From: Priapulus caudatus
Lineage: Eukaryota
Length of the DNA stretch: 14,340 nt
Reading direction: 5' to 3'
Assembly: GCF_000485595.1 (NCBI RefSeq)
Contig: NW_014577163.1
Span: 313,156 to 327,495, forward strand
Numbering within the stretch: position 1 is the stretch's first letter; each line of letters opens with the position of its first letter. This document shows, piece by piece, positions 187 through 14,176 of the stretch. The translations under genes were made by a program, and so were the position numbers. The notes below the pieces were generated by a model, which saw nothing but the letters and a program-made list of their open reading frames with translations, had not been told where the DNA came from and did not search any database.

Positions 187-286
187 ATCATCCCCCCCAC
201 TCCTCGGTACGGATTTACGCCCCTGGTTTGTGGGTCTGTGGGGATGTGTACAGCCTAACTGGAAATGTTATGGACGGATTGTCATA

Positions 287-710
287 AAATTTTCAGGATA
301 CGTCAGAAATGGGCTAACTTAGAATTGATGAGATTTTGGCGGTGATCCGGATCCAATTAATTCATTAATTAATTCATTAATTAATAAAATTTTCAGGATA
401 GGTCAGAAATGGGGTAACTTAGAATTGATTACATTTTGGTGATGATCCCGATCCAATTAATCAAATTTTCAGGATAGGTCAGAAATGGGGTAACTTAGAA
501 TTGATTACATTTTGGTGGTGATCCGGAGCCAATTAATTAATTAACTAATTAATTAATTAATAAAATTTTCAAGATAGGTCAGAAATGGGGTAACTTAGAA
601 TTGATTACATTTTGGTGGTGATCCGGATCCAATTAATTATTTAATTAATTAATTAATTAATTAATTTTTTCACTTAATTAATTAATTAATTAATAAAAAT
701 TTTTACAGTG
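287..710. repeat. Minisatellite: 4 tandem copies of a ~75-bp unit (aaattttcaggataggtcagaaatggggtaacttagaattgattacattttggtggtgatccggatccaattaa) separated by (TTAA/AATTAATT)n spacers
   Basis: Unit copies start at about 287, 386, 463 and 563 with over 90% identity. Spacers are pure ttaattaa runs of growing length. Confidence 0.9.
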
Positions 711-1091
711 AGAGAATTCAGCTGCCTTGGCGGAGGTCTGCGCTCTCCGAGTGCTCTAGTTTTGTTTTATTATACTTTTAATGTGGGGTTTTTGGGTGAG
801 AAATTGTTATTTGTGTAATGTTATATGTGATAAATCGAATGATATATGCAGGGATGAAATTCTTCCGCGGATCCGCAGAAATCCGCGGATTTGACAGTCC
901 CAGGGGTCGATTTTGTGAAACGTCTAAATTCGTTGAGAAAATTGGGAGGGGGGTAACAATGTAACAATTTAAATTATATACCCTCAACAGCACCTGACTG
1001 TAGACTGTAGAGTGTAGACAGTAGTAGGCTGACAGCGAAGTATACAGTGTATCTGTTTTTGCGTACCAGAAAAGAAAATCCTCGTTCACAG

Positions 1092-1640: not shown

Positions 1641-1909
1641 ACCATAAAACAAAAATTATGAAACATAAAACATGCCATACTAATGCGTAACTTTTAGACT
1701 GCATTCGATTGCTTGAAAGCAAGTGATATGACGTGCAGTTTAATGAGAGGATGGTGTGATTAGTAGATCTTTTTTTATAATTATAAAAACAGGATTATTA
1801 TTTTAATTAAATATTATAATTATAAGAATTAATGTAGTGCCTGTAGTCTGATGAGGCGAGCGGAACACGCCACCTTACCATCATGCCTTCACCCGTTCTT
1901 GCCCCGCAG

Positions 1910-2048
1910 GCATTTTGATCTTCCGGAGGAGGAGACCCAGAAGAGCCGGCTGTTCAGTGTCGCAGATTTTGTCGGCGATGCCTGCAAAGTGATCGCTTCA
2001 CGCATCCGCGGTTCCGTCATCAGCATTCCGTTCGACGACTTTCACAAG
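1910..2048 (+). CDS. MVP: Major vault protein exon (…[46 protein letters not shown])
   Basis: Acceptor ccccgcAG at 1908-1909 and donor GTGAGA at 2049. The translation aligns to human MVP …[48 protein letters not shown] (alignment recalled from memory). The ORF upstream of 1910 loses all similarity, which marks the exon boundary. The exon enters in phase 2. Confidence 0.85.
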
Positions 2049-2433
2049 GTGAGAGACGAGTGTGTGTATGAAACAGCATCGCCCATCAGCATGTCGTAAT
2101 CACGCACAAACGTTGAATGACATTCGTGGCGGTCAACGTGCGTGCATGTAAGGATGAGCTTGTTAAGACCTGTTTTGCTTAGTATTCTTAAAGCGTTGGC
2201 CACCGGCTGGATGTGTGTGTGCATGTGCATGTGAGCCACTGTCCTTAGCTACTATACTTCTTTCATTCGTGTTCCTTCTTTATCTTCTTTAAGTCTTTGT
2301 GGAATTCAAATTTGTAATGACAATTCTCAAACCTAAAATGCAACGTCATTTTACTGCATAATAGTAATTTTTCGTTTAACGTGAACGTCACGTGTCATCT
2401 GCATTAACTCTCACTTGCGCCATCTTTTGGCAG

Positions 2434-2645
2434 AATTCGGCGAAGATCATCCGCGTAGCGGTGTTCGGCATGGATGCTGAGATGAATGTGCGCAAGCACC
2501 TGTGTTTTGAGCAGAACTCCCTGTTCATCACAAGTGTAGACATCCAATCTGTGCAGCCCCTCGACCAGTGTATACGCGATTCACTCATGAAGTCTGAGCA
2601 GCTAGCGATAGAAATCACCACCAGCTCGCAGGAGGCAGCAGCCAG
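2434..2645 (+). CDS. MVP: Major vault protein exon ([12 protein letters not shown]…[37 protein letters not shown])
   Basis: Acceptor ttttggcAG at 2432-2433 joins in frame to the previous exon (phase 0). Donor GTCAGG at 2646. It aligns to human NSARIIRTAVFG…[37 protein letters not shown]. The six-frame ORF runs on into the intron, losing similarity and turning low-complexity. Confidence 0.85.
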
Positions 2646-3003
2646 GTCAGGAGCGACAACACGTGCTCACCTCGTGATTTGGCACGCTGTCCATCTGCTC
2701 ACTTTCTTCTACGTCAGTTCCGACCATACCCTCGCTGGTTTGCCTGTTCACTCATTTGCTCATTCACTCATTCGCTCCCTCGCTCGTCTGCATTTCACTA
2801 ATTTATTCGTATCCTTCCTTATTTGTTTAATCACTCGTTGATTAGTCTGCTCGATGTTTTGTAGTCTTACACATTTGCTAATTTGTTTGTTTTCTCCCTT
2901 ACTTTATTGTAAGGATTTAAGGAATGTAATTCAGCATGACTGCTCATGTTGAATTATTGAGATATAAGAGATGTGATAATGAAGAGGGTTTACCTCATTG
3001 CAG

Positions 3004-3112
3004 GCATGAGGCACAGCGTCTAGAGCAGCAAGCAAAGGGCAAGCTCGAGAGACAGAAGATCATGGACGAGGCAGAGGCAGAGAAGTCGAGGCGAAACCTG
3101 CTGGAACTACAG
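3004..3112 (+). CDS. MVP: Major vault protein exon ((R)[36 protein letters not shown])
   Basis: Acceptor cattgcAG at 3002-3003. The split codon ag|g gives R, matching human K at that position. Donor GTGAGC at 3113. It aligns to human [37 protein letters not shown]. Confidence 0.85.
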
Positions 3113-3410
3113 GTGAGCTCACTGCTTGTATTCCCTCCTACGTTTCTGATGTCCCATCTGTACAGACTTGTCACTCTGTAAACCCAACAAATTGGCTCAA
3201 TATCTGCTGATTCCCTGTGGATTCGAACAAGTGGGGTCCAAAGAGAGAAAGATACACTGGGTGTAACACTGAGAAGTGTCAGTGTAACTCAATCTATGAG
3301 TGATGTCTCGAGGGTTGTCAGTCTGTTACTCCTGTATTGTAATCTCATGAAATCTCGTCCAATAATTGCTGCGTATGTGTGTGACATCCCTGTACTTTTA
3401 CCTCTCATAG

Positions 3411-3530
3411 GCAGTCAGTGCAGCAATTGAGAGAACCGGCCAGGCGCAGGGTCGTGCAGAAGCTGAGAAGATTGGGGAAGCTGCAGTACAGCAGGCGAGA
3501 CTGAAGGCTGAAGCCATATCAATAGAGGCC
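3411..3530 (+). CDS. MVP: Major vault protein exon (AVSAAIERTGQAQGRAEAEKIGEAAVQQARLKAEAISIEA), cap-helix coiled coil
   Basis: Acceptor ctcatAG at 3409-3410 and consensus donor GTAAGT at 3531. It is 120 nt in phase 0 and aligns to human [47 protein letters not shown]. Confidence 0.8.
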
Positions 3531-3738
3531 GTAAGTAAACTCACTAGTGTACACCTGCGATGTTCTTAATGCCTTGCGTTAATGTAATAATGTATCAGTG
3601 TATATCTATTATAGCCAGCTTGCATTTCTCTTTTCAAATAATTGTGCGGAACGTAACTGGGTTCGCAAGGTTAAATGGGTACACTCTGCCGGTCGTACAA
3701 ACTCGTGTTTTTTTCTGGTGTTTAAACATGCACTGTAG

Positions 3739-3864
3739 ACATCAGAGCTGCAGCGTCTACAGAACGCCAGACAAGCTGAGGTCCATTATGTTCGTGAGCA
3801 GAACGCTCTTGAGGTGGAGAAGAGCCGCATTCATAGCAACATCAAAGTGGAGGAGTTTAAATAG
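3739..3864 (+). CDS. MVP: Major vault protein last recognisable exon (TSELQRLQNARQAEVHYVREQNALEVEKSRIHSNIKVEEFK*), in-frame TAG at 3862-3864
   Basis: Acceptor cactgtAG at 3737-3738. It aligns to human [39 protein letters not shown]. The stop comes directly after the VEEFK/VKKFK position, and no strong donor precedes it. Confidence 0.7.
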   Translation, partial: TSELQRLQNARQAEVHYVREQNALEVEKSRIHSNIKVEEFK

Positions 3865-4078
3865 ACATTTTTTCAGAGCAACATCAAACAAACAGAGAAA
3901 AAGAAACAAAAGGTGGACGACGACGAATCGGCCTGCGAGTAATTAAGGACGTGAAGAGAATGTGTGGTCTATGCCCTCGATGGCTCTTGGTCTGTAGTCG
4001 TTATGGCATTCAGAGTGGAAGGATTGGTTGGAAGGGCTTCACAGAAAATAATGTGTTAGATAAGAGAATGCATTACAT

Positions 4079-6845: not shown

Positions 6846-6861
6846 GTATATATGTCCCGTG

Positions 6862-6940
<79 letters not shown>

Positions 6941-7052
6941 TCTCTCTCTCTCTCTTCTCTCTCTTCTCTCTCTTCTCTCTCTCTCTCTCTCATCTCTCTA
7001 TCTCGCTCTTTCTCTCTCTCTCATCTCTCTATCTCGCTCTTTCTCTCTCTAG
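6846..7052. repeat. (CT)n microsatellite, over 80 units with interruptions
   Basis: The sequence is ctctctct… throughout. The SLSLSL and RERERE ORFs are its translations. Confidence 0.95.
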
Positions 7053-7254
7053 CATCCGTCGGGGGTGCGGATGTTTCACTATGCATGGCACTGCTCCCTT
7101 CTCATTTTCGCTCGTTCTCTCGCTTTCTCTCGCGCTCTCTCCGCTTTACCCTCGTTTCCTTCTCCATGTCTCTCATTCTAGCTCTCTTGCTCTGTTCTGT
7201 CCTATCTCCCACCTTCAGTCCCCACTCCTTTCTGTTCCTTTTGCTCTCACGACT

Positions 7255-7255
7255 T

Positions 7256-7307
<52 letters not shown>

Positions 7308-7320
7308 TCTCTCTCTCTTT
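7255..7320. repeat. (CT)n microsatellite, second block
   Basis: Runs of ctctctct… read directly from the sequence. Confidence 0.95.
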
Positions 7321-7439
7321 ATTTATCCTTTTATTTGTTGTGTCGCTCCGCACATTCGAGCAGAGTAACTTTCCCCCGGGCGTAGATTGAGGGTGCCGCT
7401 ACGTGGCAGCACCAGTGTTAAGATTAAGTAAGATCAGTT

Positions 7440-7500
7440 AGTGTTAAGATTAGTGTTAGTATTAAGGGTTAGGGTTAGGGAAATAAGGGTATAATAATAT
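7440..7500. repeat. Degenerate telomere-like repeats (gttaag/ttaggg), with an exact (TTAGGG)2 at 7469-7480
   Basis: gtgttaagattagtgttagtattaagggttagggttagggaaataagggtataataatataggg. Confidence 0.75.
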
Positions 7501-7912
7501 AGGGAAATTATTATAAACGCCTTGTGCAGTGACGTCATAAGACGTGATCACGTGCCCTCGATCTACGCCCGAGGGAAAGTGACACCCAGTAACACGCTGT
7601 AACCACTACATGCACATCTTGATGCACATACATATGTAACGACATGATGCCGTATAGTACATAGCTGCGGTTAGTAGTCAATACATGGGGTGAACGCACA
7701 TGCGGCTAGTAGCCAGTACACAGTACACATGGCGACGAACGCGCGCGCTATGTGTAAACATCTCACGAACGGACATGCTGTATGCTTTAACATCTTGCTA
7801 TCTATTCGCCGGATTGCTGCAGACAACGGCAACCGCCATGTTGGAGGCCATGTCTGGCACGAGTACGCGTGACCTACCTACGTCACGTGATGCGTCACGG
7901 TGTATGTTTCAG

Positions 7913-8112
7913 GCAGCCGGCTGAAAGGGGTGGTAGGATATGTTTACTAAGCACTTCTAATTTTAACATATATTTTAAATTTAATTAGGGTCAGGGTTAG
8001 GGTTAGGGCACTTTTTAGGGGTTTTTGCATCATTCTTTAATATATCGTAAAATATATGTTAAAATTAGAAGTGCCTAGTAAACATATCCTATCACCCCTT
8101 TCAGCCGGCTGC
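7913..8112. repeat. 200-bp foldback: ~65-bp inverted-repeat arms with a loop carrying ttagggtcagggttagggttaggg
   Basis: Left arm 7913-7977 (gcagccggctgaaaggggtggtaggatatgtttactaagcacttctaattttaacatatatttta). The reverse complement of right arm 8049-8112 differs at about 3 positions. The loop 7978-8048 holds TTAGGG-type repeats. Confidence 0.85.
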
Positions 8113-8565: not shown

Positions 8566-8842
8566 GGAGAGTTTCAATAAAACATAATGCTAAATAACTA
8601 CGAAATATATTTACTACCAGTCTTAATGTTTCTCTACTCTCCTTCACCTATTATTGCCGACAAACCGTGCTGCAAATGCTTCAGCCACTGCAACACACGC
8701 CCACCGCACGCACGCTGCTACGCGCTACTGGCAGTACTGCACACTTACACATAAATATAGAGTACTTAACACTTACACACATATCTATTCAATATTGATA
8801 TATATATATACAATATTGATAGACTCCTGATTATATATATAT

Positions 8843-8900
8843 CAGGAGTAGATAATAGGGAATTATTATTAATAGGGAATTCCCTATTATCTACTCCTGA
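8843..8900. mobile_element. 58-bp mini-hairpin (MITE-like) carrying the same termini as the 11246-12015 foldback element
   Basis: tcaggagtagataataggg-aattattattaataggg-aattccctattatctactcctga. It sits inside (TA)n. An extra truncated terminus agactcctga lies at 8821-8830. Confidence 0.7.
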
Positions 8901-8914
8901 TGTATATATATATA

Positions 8915-9112
8915 TGTGTGCGTGTGCGCGTGCGCGTGCGCGTGTGCGCGTGTGTGTGCGTGTTTGCGGGTGTGTATGTGTTTGTGTTTGTGTGCGTGTG
9001 CGTGTGCGTGCGTGCGTGCGTGCGTGTGTGTGTGTGTGTGTGTGTGTGCGTGCGTGTGTGTGTGTGTGTGTGTGCGCTCACTGTGTGCGCGTGCTCGTGC
9101 CGCGTGCGTGTG
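8915..9112. repeat. (GT)n/(GTGC)n/(GCGT)n compound microsatellite
   Basis: Runs of tgtgcgtgtgcgcgtg… Four overlapping ORFs (CVCVCV, THTHTH) are its translations. Confidence 0.95.
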
Positions 9113-9308: not shown

Positions 9309-9448
9309 ATTAATGCCTGCTGTTGGGGGCACTATGCTCTCATAGTGTTGCTGAGGGAAGGAATAGTGCCCGAGCGGTAGCGAGGGCACTATTCCTTCCC
9401 AAAGCAACACTATGAGAGCATAGTGCCCCCAACAGCAGGCATTAATGT
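9309..9448. repeat. 140-bp near-perfect palindrome (60-bp arms, 13-bp loop gagcggtagcgag)
   Basis: attaatgcctgctgttgggggcactatgctctcatagtgttgctgagggaaggaatagtgccc | loop | gggcactattccttccc-aaa-gcaacactatgagagcatagtgcccccaacagcaggcattaat. The arms differ only at ctca/aaa. Confidence 0.9.
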
Positions 9449-10050: not shown

Positions 10051-10196
10051 GATTATGATATGAGCATCTTGACCACTGATCTCTATAATATAATCGATTA
10101 TATTATATTATATTATTATTATATTATTATATTATTATATTATTATATTATATTAATCGATTATATTAATATAATCTCGATTATATTATAGAGATC
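10051..10196. repeat. Inverted repeat (arms ~35 bp, cactgatctctataatataatcgattatatta) around a (TATTA)n core
   Basis: The reverse complement of 10160-10200 (cactgatctctataatataatcgagattatatta) matches 10072-10105. The aagagct motifs lie outside the arms at both ends. Confidence 0.8.
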
Positions 10197-10220
10197 AGTG
10201 ATCTTGACAGCTCTTTGACC

Positions 10221-10309: not shown

Positions 10310-10416
10310 CACACCTGCCCTAGACTGGTACTCGCTCCCACCTCGATTACTCGACGGTGTAGCCATCGAGTAACTAAGCCGAGAGGTGGGAGCGAGTACC
10401 AGTCTACACCTGCCCT
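10310..10416. mobile_element. 83-bp palindromic MITE-like insertion (10322-10404) flanked by an 11-bp direct duplication ACACCTGCCCT
   Basis: acacctgccct|agactggtactcgctcccacctcg-attactcgacggtgtagccatcgagtaactaagc-cgagaggtgggagcgagtaccagtct|acacctgccct. The outer stem is 25 bp with a nested 11-bp inner stem (ttactcgacgg/ccatcgagtaa). The direct repeats sit at 10310-10320 and 10405-10415. Confidence 0.6.
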
Positions 10417-10501: not shown

Positions 10502-10553
10502 ATGGAGGATGTTTCTACAGTTGTTGTCGTGTTACTGGCGTTGTGTCATACTG
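10502..10553 (+). CDS. Putative signal-peptide exon (MEDVSTVVVVLLALCHT+g), phase 1, proposed exon 1 of the Ly6/uPAR gene
   Basis: ATG in good Kozak context, a hydrophobic core, and a consensus donor GTAAGA at 10554. It ends in phase 1, exactly what the 13215 acceptor needs; g+gt gives Gly, producing …CHTG|LAIRCYSC. The implied intron is 2.66 kb and contains the foldback element. Confidence 0.35.
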
Positions 10554-10720
10554 GTAAGAACCGAGATCGTTAATTATTCGCGCGTGCATTTATACGGTGA
10601 CAGTGTTTAATAGCGTACCTTTTCGGTACATTATTCACACATAAATTGGACACAACTGTTGCAGGTCACACAAAAACAGAAGTCGGGGACGTGTATGACT
10701 CAACTTGTAGTCGGTTCAAG

Positions 10721-10879
10721 GATAGAGAACATGGGTCCCAATAAAACCAATGTCATTTACATCAATATAAATTATTAAATATAATATTAATTATTATATC
10801 AATATAATAGGTTAGGGTTATGGTTAGGCCTTAGGGTTAGGCACATTGGTTTTATTGGGACCCATGTACGTTCTCTATC
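10721..10879. repeat. Foldback: 32-36-bp inverted arms (gatagagaacatgggtcccaataaaaccaatg) with a loop carrying ggttagggttatggttaggccttagggttagg
   Basis: The reverse complement of 10843-10879 equals the left arm with a 4-bp insertion (gtac). The loop is AT-rich followed by TTAGGG-type repeats ending …ggcac, as in the 7913-8112 element. Confidence 0.85.
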
Positions 10880-11078
10880 ATTTGGGCCTGTAGTCTACGT
10901 CTACGTCTACATCTGACACAGGCACTTGGGACAGAGTCAGTAAAAACTGAAAATAATATGAACGCACATTCACAAATACTACCGTACCTCTCAATTACAG
11001 TTCCACTGTTGTGTCACTGTATATCAACTTTCCTTCATAAAAACAAACACCGAACGCTCCCGCACTCGCCGCTGCGAG

Positions 11079-11215
11079 TGTGCTGTGTCGCCATTAGTTC
11101 TAGTACTATAGCCCGCTTACATTAATTGCCACTGCCAGCGGCAACTGTACGCGGGCTATAGTACTAGAGCTATGTCGCCATTAGCTCTAGTACTATAGCC
11201 CGCGTACAGTTGCCG
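11079..11215. repeat. S-shaped repeat: three copies of ctagtactatagcccgc in + / - / + orientation
   Basis: gtcgccattagttctagtactatagcccgc…gcgggctatagtactagagctatgtcgccattagctctagtactatagcccgcgtacagttgccgc. The middle copy is inverted relative to both outer copies. cagcggcaactgtacgcggg / cccgcgtacagttgccgc are also inverted. Confidence 0.8.
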
Positions 11216-11245
11216 CTTTGAGACCAAATTGTATATATATATATA

Positions 11246-12015
11246 TCAGGAGTAGATAATAGGGAAGGAGTGTGACATCAATAAACAAGGGAAATTCGTC
11301 ATTTACTAGCCTTAGAATACCTACGATTTACTACGCGTAACGCAACCAACTTGAGCTCAAATCGTACACAGTACATTTGCCTAGCATCGTGCTAAATCGT
11401 TTCCTCGTATACACCCGCAATCCGGAGATAGAGACTAAAACGTACGACACGATTATCCATTCTGTTGCCAGCACACAGAATCCAATAGACGCAAAACTTG
11501 AAACAAAAGGCAGCTACTAACGCGCTATTGCTAACTCGGCGAGGCATGTGGCTCGCTGGGAGATTAGGCATCAACGCAACACTCGGCGAGATAACCTTTG
11601 ACCCGGTACACAGCTACATACCGGCATACCGACATACAGCTGGCATGCCCCCACGCACGCACGCCAACCGCAATCAGCAGCAGATCGGGCTCAAATCTCC
11701 CAGCGAGCCACATTGCCCGCCGAGTTAGCAATAGCGCGTTAGTAGCTGCCTTTTGTTTCAAGTTTTGCGCCTATTGGATTCTGTGTGCTGGCAACAGAAT
11801 GGATAATCGTGTCATACGTTTTAGTCTCTCTATCTCCGGATTGCGGGTGTATACGAGGAAACGATTTAGCACGATGCTAGGCGAATGTACTGTGTACGAT
11901 TTGCGCTCAAGTTGGTTGAGTTACGCGTAGTAAATCGTAGGTATTCTAAGGCTAGTAAATGACGAATTTCCCTTGTTTATTGAAGTCACACTCCTTCCCT
12001 ATTATCTACTCCTGA
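11246..12015. mobile_element. 770-bp foldback / long-TIR element: terminal inverted repeats of ~320 bp (11246-11565 and 11694-12015) around a 128-bp unique core, inserted in (TA)n
   Basis: Termini are tcaggagtagataatagggaaggagtgtgac … gtcacactccttccctattatctactcctga. The arms are roughly 93-95% identical. The mirror-image ORFs at 11392-11574(-) and 11598-11930(+) translate to near-identical peptides (SNLPASH.ARRVSNSALVAAFCFKFC.YWILCAGNRMDNRV) only because they read the two arms. No transposase ORF is present, so it is non-autonomous. Confidence 0.8.
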
Positions 12016-12030
12016 TATATATATATACAA

Positions 12031-12069
12031 TCAAGAGTAGATAATAGAGTCTCTATAATCTACTCTTGA
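12031..12069. mobile_element. 39-bp mini-hairpin variant of the same TIR terminus (tcaagagtagataatagag / ctctataatctactcttga), flanked by TACAA on both sides
   Basis: It lies 16 bp 3' of the big element inside the same (TA)n tract. Direct tacaa occurs at 12026-12030 and 12070-12074. Confidence 0.65.
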
Positions 12070-12075
12070 TACAAT

Positions 12076-12146
12076 GTATATATATATATATGTATATTAT
12101 ATATATACATTGTATATATATATATATATATATACATATATATACA
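12076..12146. repeat. (TA)n microsatellite with interruptions
   Basis: Runs of (ta)n interrupted by tgtata and ttatat. Confidence 0.95.
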
Positions 12147-12342
12147 CTAGGGGTCAGTGATACATATGGTATTTTGTTCTAAAGTAAAACAATGTGGCTA
12201 TCTTTGTCAGGCTGCAAAGATATATGATCCCAGTTATTACCTAGGTAATGCTATTTATTGCATTCATAAGGTTGCATTCATTCTGGCTATTTCATTTTTT
12301 CACTGGGTGTGGGCCAGGGTGCATCTTGGTTGATAAGAGAGG

Positions 12343-12418
12343 TGCTTTGTTGTTGTTGTTGTTTTTTGTGGCTAATGCTGCTGCTGCTTCTGCTGCTGTT
12401 GCTGCTGTTGCTGCTGCA
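12343..12418. repeat. (TTG)n followed by (GCT)n trinucleotide repeats
   Basis: ttgttgttgttgttg…gctgctgctgcttctgctgctgttgctgctgttgctgctg. Overlapping ORFs give poly-L and poly-A. No splice or gene context supports coding. Confidence 0.85.
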
Positions 12419-13214
12419 GTACCGAAGTTATTGTCGTAGATTACAGGGAGGAAAATCTTTTGCAGTTTCATGGATTTCTGATTTTTTTAGCTGTTAGTAC
12501 TGATTTGGATAAATTCAAAGAGAAAATTTAGGTGGGGTTAGAATACCTTACGTGATTTAAAGACCAGACTTAGCCCGATGTCTCATAAACTATAGTCATG
12601 GGAATTGGTTGGAATTCCATCATCAATCATCGGTTGCACGCAACCGATCGATGATTGAAGATAATCAGTTGAATGTTATTGATCGCGGCTACCAGATGTT
12701 GAAATATATTATATATCATATAATACAGTATTTTTTTATAATACAATATTCGAAAAGCTATATGACAGTATTATGCATGCTTATGTTTGGTGCAGGTTAT
12801 ATTTACTGTCTTCATGCTGTATAGTAACCAAACTAAACACAATAATAAAATTAAGTGTCATTTCATCAGTGTTTGCAAATTTTATTAAAAAATGTGAAAA
12901 AAACTTTTTTGATTGATTATTTATTTTCATAATCAAGCGCTTATACGTATAGTCGGTTGCTGCAAACGACTGACTTTCGATTATAATCGATCATCGGGAC
13001 ATCACTATCATAAAGTCGGATCACATTGTTAGAGAGCAACTTGTTTAGTTTAGTAAAACTATGGAGTATTAACTAAGTCGAGTGTATTCCAGATTGTGAC
13101 TGTAGGTATTTTGTACACCATTTGTCGTTGCAATTTTTTGTTCAATTATGATTTCAGATTTTTTTGTCGGTCATTCTCATCCCTGATCCTGAGGTCATGA
13201 TTGCTTGTTGACAG

Positions 13215-13361
13215 GTCTAGCCATAAGATGCTACTCATGTACAGTTCCTCCATATCCAGGAGCGGATCTTCATACAAATAAACGCAACATCTGTCCAGAC
13301 ATTAGTTGTCCGGGACCAAAGGAGGAACAAGTATGTGTGAAGATTACTGATAACAGAGGAA
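13215..13361 (+). CDS. Ly6/uPAR (three-finger) domain exon: (G)LAIRCYSCTVPPYPGADLHTNKRNICPDISCPGPKEEQVCVKITDNRG
   Basis: Acceptor ttgttgacAG at 13213-13214 and consensus donor GTAAGT at 13362. It opens with the LU-domain signature L-x-C-Y-S-C and has 5 cysteines with family-typical spacing. It enters and leaves in phase 1. Confidence 0.6.
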
Positions 13362-13746: not shown

Positions 13747-13830
13747 GCGAAGAGGTCATCGTAAGAGGGTGCCTTTGGGACCTCAGATCAAGTAACTGGG
13801 CTCCTCTGCTCCCTGGAGATGTATTTACAG
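13747..13830 (+). CDS. Ly6/uPAR domain exon: SEEVIVRGCLWDLRSSNWAPLLPGDVFT(G)
   Basis: Acceptor ttgtttctAG at 13745-13746 and donor GTATGT at 13831. It is phase-1 compatible with the neighbouring exons (a|gc gives Ser, g|ga gives Gly) and contributes one Cys (RGC). Confidence 0.55.
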
Positions 13831-13976: not shown

Positions 13977-14176
13977 GATGCCGGAAACCAGCTGTCGATA
14001 AATACCTAACGCCTAATGACTACTATCTGAACGTGTACAAGCAACCACACGAATCCATAGACTTCTGCTTCTGCAATGACTGGATATGGTGCAATGGCGC
14101 ACCACAACTGGTGAAGTCGGCCATCCTGCCTGGTTTACTATTGGCTTTGTCGCTGTGGCATTTATTGTACGCATGA
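13977..14176 (+). CDS. Ly6/uPAR terminal exon: (G)CRKPAVDKYLTPNDYYLNVYKQPHESIDFCFCNDWIWCNGAPQLVKSAILPGLLLALSLWHLLYA*
   Basis: Acceptor tcttcgcAG at 13975-13976. It holds the family's C-terminal signature: a near-adjacent Cys pair FCFC, then x5, then C-N (CNDWIWCN). A small-residue omega region (NGA) follows, then a 17-residue hydrophobic tail, which is a typical GPI-anchor signal. TGA at 14174-14176. The mature domain has 10 Cys in total. Confidence 0.6.

Follow-up and report, generated by a model that had tools for sequence, protein, structure and literature searches.

The window analyzed here is a 14,340-nt stretch of DNA whose source organism is Priapulus caudatus. It contains 3' exons of the major vault protein gene (1907-3865) and the Quiver/Ly6-like gene LOC106805155. 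The product of LOC106805155 is of the Quiver/Ly6 type (Pfam PF17064). The introns of this gene are all GT-AG, and the translation of its spliced coding sequence is 100% identical to P0121, 'uncharacterized protein LOC106805155 [Priapulus caudatus]'. Three inverted-repeat structures with common termini are found at the locus: a 770-bp foldback element (BIG) and two mini-hairpins, m58 and m39 (Table 1). Because the spliced coding sequence reproduces P0121, BIG and m39 are intronic and lie in intron 1 (10554-13214). m58 is located 1.6 kb upstream of the LOC106805155 start codon, in the spacer past the 3' exons of the major vault protein gene. The features had been listed before in a reading made from the letters of the DNA (the sequence-only reading), and all of them are present within 1 nt of where that reading had placed them.

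Table 1. Features of the locus and of two metagenome contigs that carry the family terminus. Positions are those of the window. Flanking dinucleotides are read with the terminal T/A counted as element.
Feature	Position or contig	Strand	Flanking dinucleotides (left/right)	Description
Isolated right-end 8-mer	8823-8830	+		ACTCCTGA; abuts TA tract
m58	8842-8900	.	TA/TG	59-bp mini-hairpin, 23-nt arms, 13-nt loop
LOC106805155 exon 1	10502-10553	+		Quiver/Ly6-like gene
BIG left flank	11228-11245	.		ATTG(TA)7; last TA = putative target-site duplication
BIG	11246-12015	.	TA/TA	770-bp foldback, non-coding; termini TCAGGAGTAGATAATAGGGAA / TTCCCTATTATCTACTCCTGA
BIG left arm	11246-11565	+		320 nt
BIG loop	11566-11693	.		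Unique 128 nt, non-palindromic, not adapter-like
BIG right arm	11694-12015	-		322 nt
BIG right flank / spacer to m39	12016-12030	.		(TA)6CAA; first TA = putative target-site duplication
m39	12031-12069	.	AA/TA	39-bp mini-hairpin, variant termini TCAAGAGTAGATAATAGAG / CTCTATAATCTACTCTTGA, 1-nt centre
TA-rich palindromic tract right of m39	12070-12145	.		Begins with second TACAA
LOC106805155 exon 2	13215-13361	+		
LOC106805155 spliced coding sequence	10502-10553 / 13215-13361 / 13747-13830 / 13977-14176			
L031 (metagenome copy)	LXNI01021616.1		TA/TA	42-bp hairpin TCAAGAGTAGATAATAGAGAG-CT-CTCTTTATTATCTACTCTTGT, CAAGAG variant
L041	Ga0315899_10158776			(TA)15 directly abutting TCCAAGAGTAGATAATAGGG
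Family tip string				YCAGGAGTAGATAATAGGG

BIG is a near-perfect foldback with sharply bounded inverted termini. The left arm and the reverse complement of the right arm are ~97% identical and differ by 7 substitutions and 3 small indels. Folded as single-stranded DNA, the element reaches -409.5 kcal/mol (z = -49.6 against shuffles). The earlier description of a foldback with inverted arms of about 320 bp is thus borne out. The arms were searched for tandem subrepeats and for an internal repeat of the terminal 19-mer, with up to 6 mismatches allowed, and contain neither. The architecture is therefore unlike that of IR/DR elements, and a Tc1-like element of the IR/DR type (Sleeping Beauty, Minos type), which would carry an inner copy of the terminal repeat in its arms, was rejected.

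BIG was also said to be non-autonomous, and the searches agree in finding it non-coding. A Pfam scan of its stop-free translations in five of six frames returned no family, and a chimeric six-frame translation, compared with 5.8e9 proteins, returned no relative. No transposase ORF is present within the window, and no Rfam families or tRNAs are found anywhere in it. For the interior of BIG, neither the rest of the window nor the collections searched gave a match.

The three structures are joined by their ends. The exact 18-mer CAGGAGTAGATAATAGGG is found at 8843(+), 8882(-), 11247(+), and 11997(-), which are the ends of m58 and BIG. Two variants of it lie in m39, at 12032(+) with 2 mismatches and at 12051(-) with 3. 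The window thus holds 6 terminus matches against 0.02 expected, a number reached in 0/200 shuffles. The outer 21 nt (TCAGGAGTAGATAATAGGGAA) are identical in BIG and m58, and farther inward the two have nothing in common. Since the termini are shared, the mini-hairpins and BIG belong to one TIR family, as had been proposed.

The mini-hairpins are compact. m58 folds at -22 kcal/mol (z = -10.2) and m39 at -12.5 kcal/mol (z = -6.6). m58 had been described as a collapsed copy of 58 bp; the copy is there, but it measures 59 bp from 8842 (58 if counted from 8843). m39 had been described as a 39-bp variant with TACAA on both sides, 16 bp from BIG. The variant and its TACAA flanks (12026-12030 and 12070-12074) are present, but the spacing is 15 nt, with m39 to the right of BIG. 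The label 'solo-terminus' does not apply to either hairpin, as each has both ends, facing outward, in the manner of a Made1-type internal deletion. Microhomology-mediated joining was considered from the self-complementary centres of the mini-hairpins (AATT, AGCT) and dropped. Every gapless palindrome has such a centre, so these are uninformative on microhomology.

An isolated right-end 8-mer is found to the left of m58. The window has five occurrences of ACTCCTGA, where 0.44 would be expected, and apart from this one they are the four canonical ends. The site had been read as a further truncated end. The 8-mer does stand at a TA tract, but on extension toward a full diverged terminus the similarity is weak beyond 8 nt. 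It may mark the end of a diverged copy truncated on the left, a hairpin at 8784-8830 with (TA)6 at its centre. In all, three to four copies within 3.3 kb of the window carry a sharply bounded TIR of ~21 nt.

Insertion in TA tracts, another claim of the sequence-only reading, was confirmed. Tracts of (TA)n with at least four repeats account for 1.2% of the window; positions at most 10 nt from one account for 2.5%. At all three insertion sites (BIG, m58, and m39), such a tract lies no more than 10 nt away on either side. The flanks of BIG mirror each other, as ATTG(TA)7 on the left and (TA)6CAAT on the right. To the left of m58 stands (TA)5, and to its right TG(TA)6.

Among the four complete copies (the three window copies and L031), TA stands at 6/8 flanking dinucleotides. 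The duplication is perfect in 2/4 copies, in one of them trivially so because BIG is surrounded by (TA)n; at m58 and m39 it is imperfect. The mirror-image flanks of BIG and m58 allow only even-length, palindromic duplications, and a single TSD longer than 2 bp for all four copies is ruled out by this parity. The flanks of L031 permit TA, TTAT, or a heptamer at 6/7. With one mismatch allowed, the sole duplication length that suits all four complete copies is 2 bp, a pattern that is compatible with Tc1/mariner but is no proof of it.

m39 departs from the pattern. The direct repeat around it is 5-7 bp long, (A)TACAA(T), and does not fit a TA duplication. The repeat looks genuine, since TATATACAATGTATATA without interruption is present close by, inverted, at about 12100-12120 in the tract that follows m39; this copy has the look of an empty-site paralogue.

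Other hairpin elements, unrelated to this family, lie nearby at 10074-10200 and 10321-10406. They are bounded by clean duplications of 8 bp and 9 bp, respectively. Duplications of this size are therefore readily visible in the window when present.

The sequence-only reading took the TA context as a pointer to Tc1/mariner and could name no family for the terminus. The first point is supported and the second has to be corrected. The ITRs of the mariner element Mos1 are printed as TA/CCAGGTGTACAAGTAGGGAATGTCGGTT and TA/TCAGGTGTACAAGTATGAAATGTCGTTT (PMC2642840). The family end TCAGGAGTAGATAATAGGGAA matches the Mos1 5' ITR CCAGGTGTACAAGTAGGGAA at 16/20 positions with one gap, in the form TCAGGAGTAGATAATAGGGAA against CCAGGTGTACA-AGTAGGGAA. 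The alignment starts at the tip beside the TA, and the best alignment begins exactly at the element tip, that is, in register. When the Mos1 ITR was scored against all 28,638 21-mers of the window, the four canonical ends were the top four. Shuffling gave p = 5e-5 for the outer 21 nt and p = 2e-4 when 29 nt were compared, for a comparison element picked after the TA context was known. The ITRs of Himar1 and Hsmar1 showed no significant similarity to the family end. The likeness to Mos1, an element of Drosophila mauritiana, is confined to the ends and fades past nucleotide 21, and the family element differs from Mos1 in having no transposase gene.

Copies were also sought outside the window. 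A scan of metagenome contigs with the terminus gave 54 exact hits, 52 of which were chance or coding matches. Two eukaryote-like contigs from other samples, L031 and L041, carry the family terminus. The L031 copy does not lie in a microsatellite, and a possible second end is found 361 nt off, inverted, with an 18/20 match and TA flanks. In prokaryote genomes, used as a negative control, there were 120 chance hits, and 0/120 had either a partner in inverted orientation or flanking (TA)n. A scan of IMG/VR with the terminus gave 2 hits, both chance. The motif was absent from an unrelated 2.7-kb Logan contig reached via P0122. An exact look-up of P0121 and two window ORFs, intended to reach other copies, returned no records, and a full-text literature search with the terminus sequence returned nothing relevant. 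L031 and L041 lend thin support to a dispersed family.

BIG, m58, and m39 very probably form a family of non-autonomous TIR transposons. The assignment of this family to Tc1/mariner, and specifically to the mariner-like elements, stands at slightly better than an even chance. We lean, with the same reserve, toward a foldback MITE family of the Tc1/mariner type that has collapsed derivatives and is inserted in (TA)n. It is probably a MITE family of P. caudatus that has not been described previously, ordinary in kind and no new type of element.

Under the mariner-type reading, a DD34D transposase of the mariner type, encoded elsewhere in the genome, would act in trans and bind the terminal 21-28 bp. 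The transposase would excise the element and reinsert it at a TA by cut-and-paste, duplicating the TA. (TA)n tracts would be favoured as targets because they offer runs of the target dinucleotide in bendable DNA. The related transposase of Sleeping Beauty favours ATATATAT as a target, and in its point mutants the insertions become concentrated in simple repeats rich in TA (PMC8934666).

For the 320-nt arms of BIG, the best explanation is template switching in post-excision gap repair, by which a single subterminal region would have been duplicated in inverted orientation. A template-switch model has been put forward for the mosquito MITE Goblin, and it would be consistent with Tc7, Tc6, Cele1/2, and Milord, which are Tc1/mariner MITEs with unusually long TIRs (PMC3814204). 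m39 and m58 would be internal deletions produced by abortive gap repair, with only the transposase-binding ends retained. Continued mobility of the mini-hairpins is doubtful because their arms of 19-23 nt are shorter than the full 28-bp mariner ITR.

The family could instead belong to the P superfamily (Galileo-like), to hAT, or to another foldback group with a TSD of 5-8 bp, the terminal T/A then lying outside the element. We consider this unlikely. Long TIRs that fill most of an element and a TIR start of CA are compatible with Galileo/P and hAT. If the boundaries are placed at CAAGAG...CTCTTG, ATACAAT stands at either side of m39 (7/7), and L031 lies between TTATTAT and TTATCAT (6/7). The mirror flanks of BIG and m58 (...TATAT/CAGGAG...CTCCTG/ATATA...), however, exclude an odd-length TSD for a symmetric element. 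The 8-bp TSD of hAT fails at m39 and L031, no TSD longer than 2 bp fits all four complete copies, and the in-register similarity to the Mos1 ITR is left unexplained.

A microsatellite-targeted TIR element of another superfamily is, in our estimate, distinctly improbable. Such an element would be an animal analogue of the plant Mutator-like MuTAnT, SaTar, TAFT, and Micron, directed to (TA)n, perhaps through a recombination-like process that leaves no regular TSD, and arranged in non-nested arrays. Every window copy is in or beside (TA)n, in tracts that occupy only 1.2% of the window. BIG and m39 stand side by side with (TA)6CAA between them and neither interrupted, as in an array. Arrays of this sort are known from SaTars, whose flanking sequence frequently cannot be reconciled with a TSD (PMC5907723). 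The form in which MuTAnT was discovered is a foldback of 292 bp, with TIRs of 144 bp and TA repeats on either side, often in introns (PMC4486113). Long TIRs are typical of MULEs. Against a MULE, m39 and L031, the sole two copies without pure (TA)n flanks, show no 8-11 bp duplication, in a window where the neighbouring unrelated hairpins show theirs plainly. The terminus matches a mariner ITR and not a Mu-type end, and L031 lies outside any microsatellite.

MuTAnT (Medicago), SaTar (guayule and rice), TAFT (maize), and Micron (rice) do share several features with the present family. They are non-autonomous foldback or long-TIR elements with (TA)n on both sides. They are often intronic or near genes and at times lie side by side in one microsatellite. 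They differ in being Mutator-like elements of plants whose TSDs, outside microsatellites, are 9-10 bp long, whereas this family is without such a TSD and its termini are mariner-like. It is unlikely that the family is an animal counterpart of SaTar, MuTAnT, and Micron in which insertion is steered specifically into (TA)n by a transposase of the mariner type or by an accessory route of recombination, copies stack side by side without nesting, and hairpins of 39-59 bp are mobile. If this were true, such hairpins would be among the smallest transposable units of eukaryotes. Targeting of (TA)n would then also account for the flanks that break a simple TA duplication.

Immobile local palindromes, formed by breakage and repair at cruciform-prone (TA)n and spread as inverted duplications within this locus only, are a very unlikely explanation. 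The window copies all fall within 3.3 kb in palindrome-prone TA tracts, the flanks of BIG are themselves mirror images, and its interior is unmatched elsewhere in the window or in the collections searched. Yet one tip of 18-21 nt bounds three structures whose interiors are wholly different, and random inverted duplication would not recreate identical end points. The tip is also found in two unrelated contigs, once as a hairpin and once at the edge of (TA)n, and it matches a known transposase-binding ITR.

An assembly artefact, such as a fold-back chimeric long read in gap filling, is scarcely credible even though the arm differences are partly small indels, the error type of early long reads, because the 128-nt loop is unique and non-adapter, both ends of the palindrome coincide exactly with the family terminus, and the flanking TA tracts are unequal (7 vs 6 repeats); small independent copies have the same tips as well.

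The mariner-type foldback MITE reading can be set beside known systems. Tc7 of Caenorhabditis elegans and its long-TIR relatives are, like BIG, non-coding, shorter than 1 kb, and made up of two long arms with a short unique centre. Tc7 is 921 bp long with 345-bp arms. Tc7-type MITEs use TA targets, and only the last few tens of bp at each of their ends correspond to the termini of an autonomous Tc1/mariner element. Tc7 and BIG have no sequence similarity, and their hosts are a nematode and a priapulid, respectively. The autonomous partner of Tc7 (Tc1) and its mobilisation are known, whereas the partner of BIG is putative.

The Foldback (FB) element of Drosophila and Galileo resemble BIG in consisting mostly of very long inverted arms. 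FB duplicates 9 bp of target and Galileo 7 bp, and neither length fits BIG or m58. The arms of FB are built of tandem subrepeats, and those of BIG are without any. An element of the Drosophila FB type was rejected on this difference and on the mirror flanks, which exclude an odd-length TSD.

Made1 is an 80-bp primate MITE derived from Hsmar1. It consists of two 37-bp TIRs and 6 bp (PMC1784062) and was formed from Hsmar1 by internal deletion (PMC3814204). The 39-, 42-, and 59-bp hairpins follow the same design of barely more than two TIRs. They are even shorter than Made1, with arms of 19-23 nt. The Made1 transcript folds into a hairpin.

For the host gene, the near-perfect 320-bp hairpin in intron 1 means that the pre-mRNA of LOC106805155 would carry long double-stranded RNA. 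The hairpin is thus a possible source of dsRNA and may cause trouble for assembly or PCR.

Priapulids are a slowly evolving and little-studied ecdysozoan phylum, and in the searchable literature a single paper was found that names P. caudatus alongside mariner and transposase. The current understanding of transposons is unaltered by the BIG, m58, and m39 family. This single locus displays steps already proposed for the origin of MITEs, namely the formation of long TIRs and the collapse to bare ends. Repeat annotation of P. caudatus would gain from an entry for a mariner-like MITE family that has both a foldback member and collapsed members of the Made1 kind.

Within the 14 kb of the window there are at least eight palindromes that are MITE-like and unrelated to one another. 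Clean target-site duplications flank two small palindromic elements in exon-1-proximal DNA. The 8-bp duplication around the first is hAT-like, and the 9-bp duplication around the second is Mutator-like. A TTAA target is possible for the hairpin element with 63-nt arms because it is bounded by ATTAAT.

The loops of three different MITE-like hairpins contain degenerate telomere-type TTAGGG repeats, all in the same orientation. The arms of these hairpins are mutually unrelated. At no more than one mismatch, TTAGGGTTAGGG gave 7 matches against 0.01 expected.

Features of the window
Feature	Position	Strand	Details
176-bp tandem repeat	284-735		~2.5 copies, of which copies 1 and 2 are 93% identical
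Major vault protein gene, last five exons	1907-3865	+
Hairpin elements with telomere-type repeats in the loops	7365-7583, 7913-8112, ~10690-10880
Telomere-type repeats in hairpin loops	7463-7480, 7985-8008, 10812-10842	+	Motif match
Hairpin element	7913-8112		68-nt arms; flanks ATGTTTCAG / ATGTTTCGG, 8/9 agreeing
Hairpin element	9309-9446		63-nt arms, 97% complementary; 12-nt loop; ATTAAT at bounds
Palindromic element CACTGATCTC...GAGATCAGTG	10074-10200		ATCTTGAC on both sides, 8 bp
Palindromic element TAGACTGGTACTCGC...CCAGTCTA	10321-10406		CACCTGCCC on both sides, 9 bp
Quiver/Ly6-like gene LOC106805155	10502-14176		After the major vault protein gene

Directly left of the TA tract of BIG, the 770-bp foldback element, lies a three-armed repeat (11088-11217). 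The motif GTCGCCATTAG(T/C)TCTAGTACTATAGCCCGC is present there in two direct copies and one inverted copy, and the repeat includes two 36-nt segments that match perfectly in inverted orientation, 9 nt apart. A 47-bp hairpin, TCTATTCAATATTGA-(TA)6-CAATATTGATAGA, is located at 8784-8830, then CTCCTGA; this hairpin is also a 21-bp tandem duplication. CAAT/ATTG motifs are found at the bounds of several TA tracts (8793-8814, 11228-12031, and 12070-12114).

Simple repeats are also found elsewhere in the window. At 6860-7320 and 8915-9080 there are long runs of (CT)n as well as a (GT)n/(GC-GT)n compound tract, and the compound tract is the direct continuation of the TA tract right of the 59-bp mini-hairpin m58. 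Each unit of the 176-bp tandem repeat ends in (AATT)n. The best database relatives of the major vault protein gene are just 65-68% identical.

Two metagenome contigs carry the terminus of BIG's family. Ga0315899_10158776, where the terminus is solo, has a (CA)35 microsatellite between two direct repeats of ~45 bp (615-777), and the repeat reads CCTAGCGCGxGGGTAACTTCAACTGGGTGGAAxGTGTCGCCATGGA. LXNI01021616.1 contains a 42-bp hairpin of the terminus with TATCATA directly to its right (1126-1132). Read post hoc as TA+TCA+TA, this sequence would have the form expected of a mariner excision footprint left by an element starting TCA. A second terminus-like sequence in this contig, TATCTACAATTGA followed by TAATAAT (1457-1476), is inverted and is located 361 nt away. 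This second terminus would mark off an element of ~390 bp with TA flanks.
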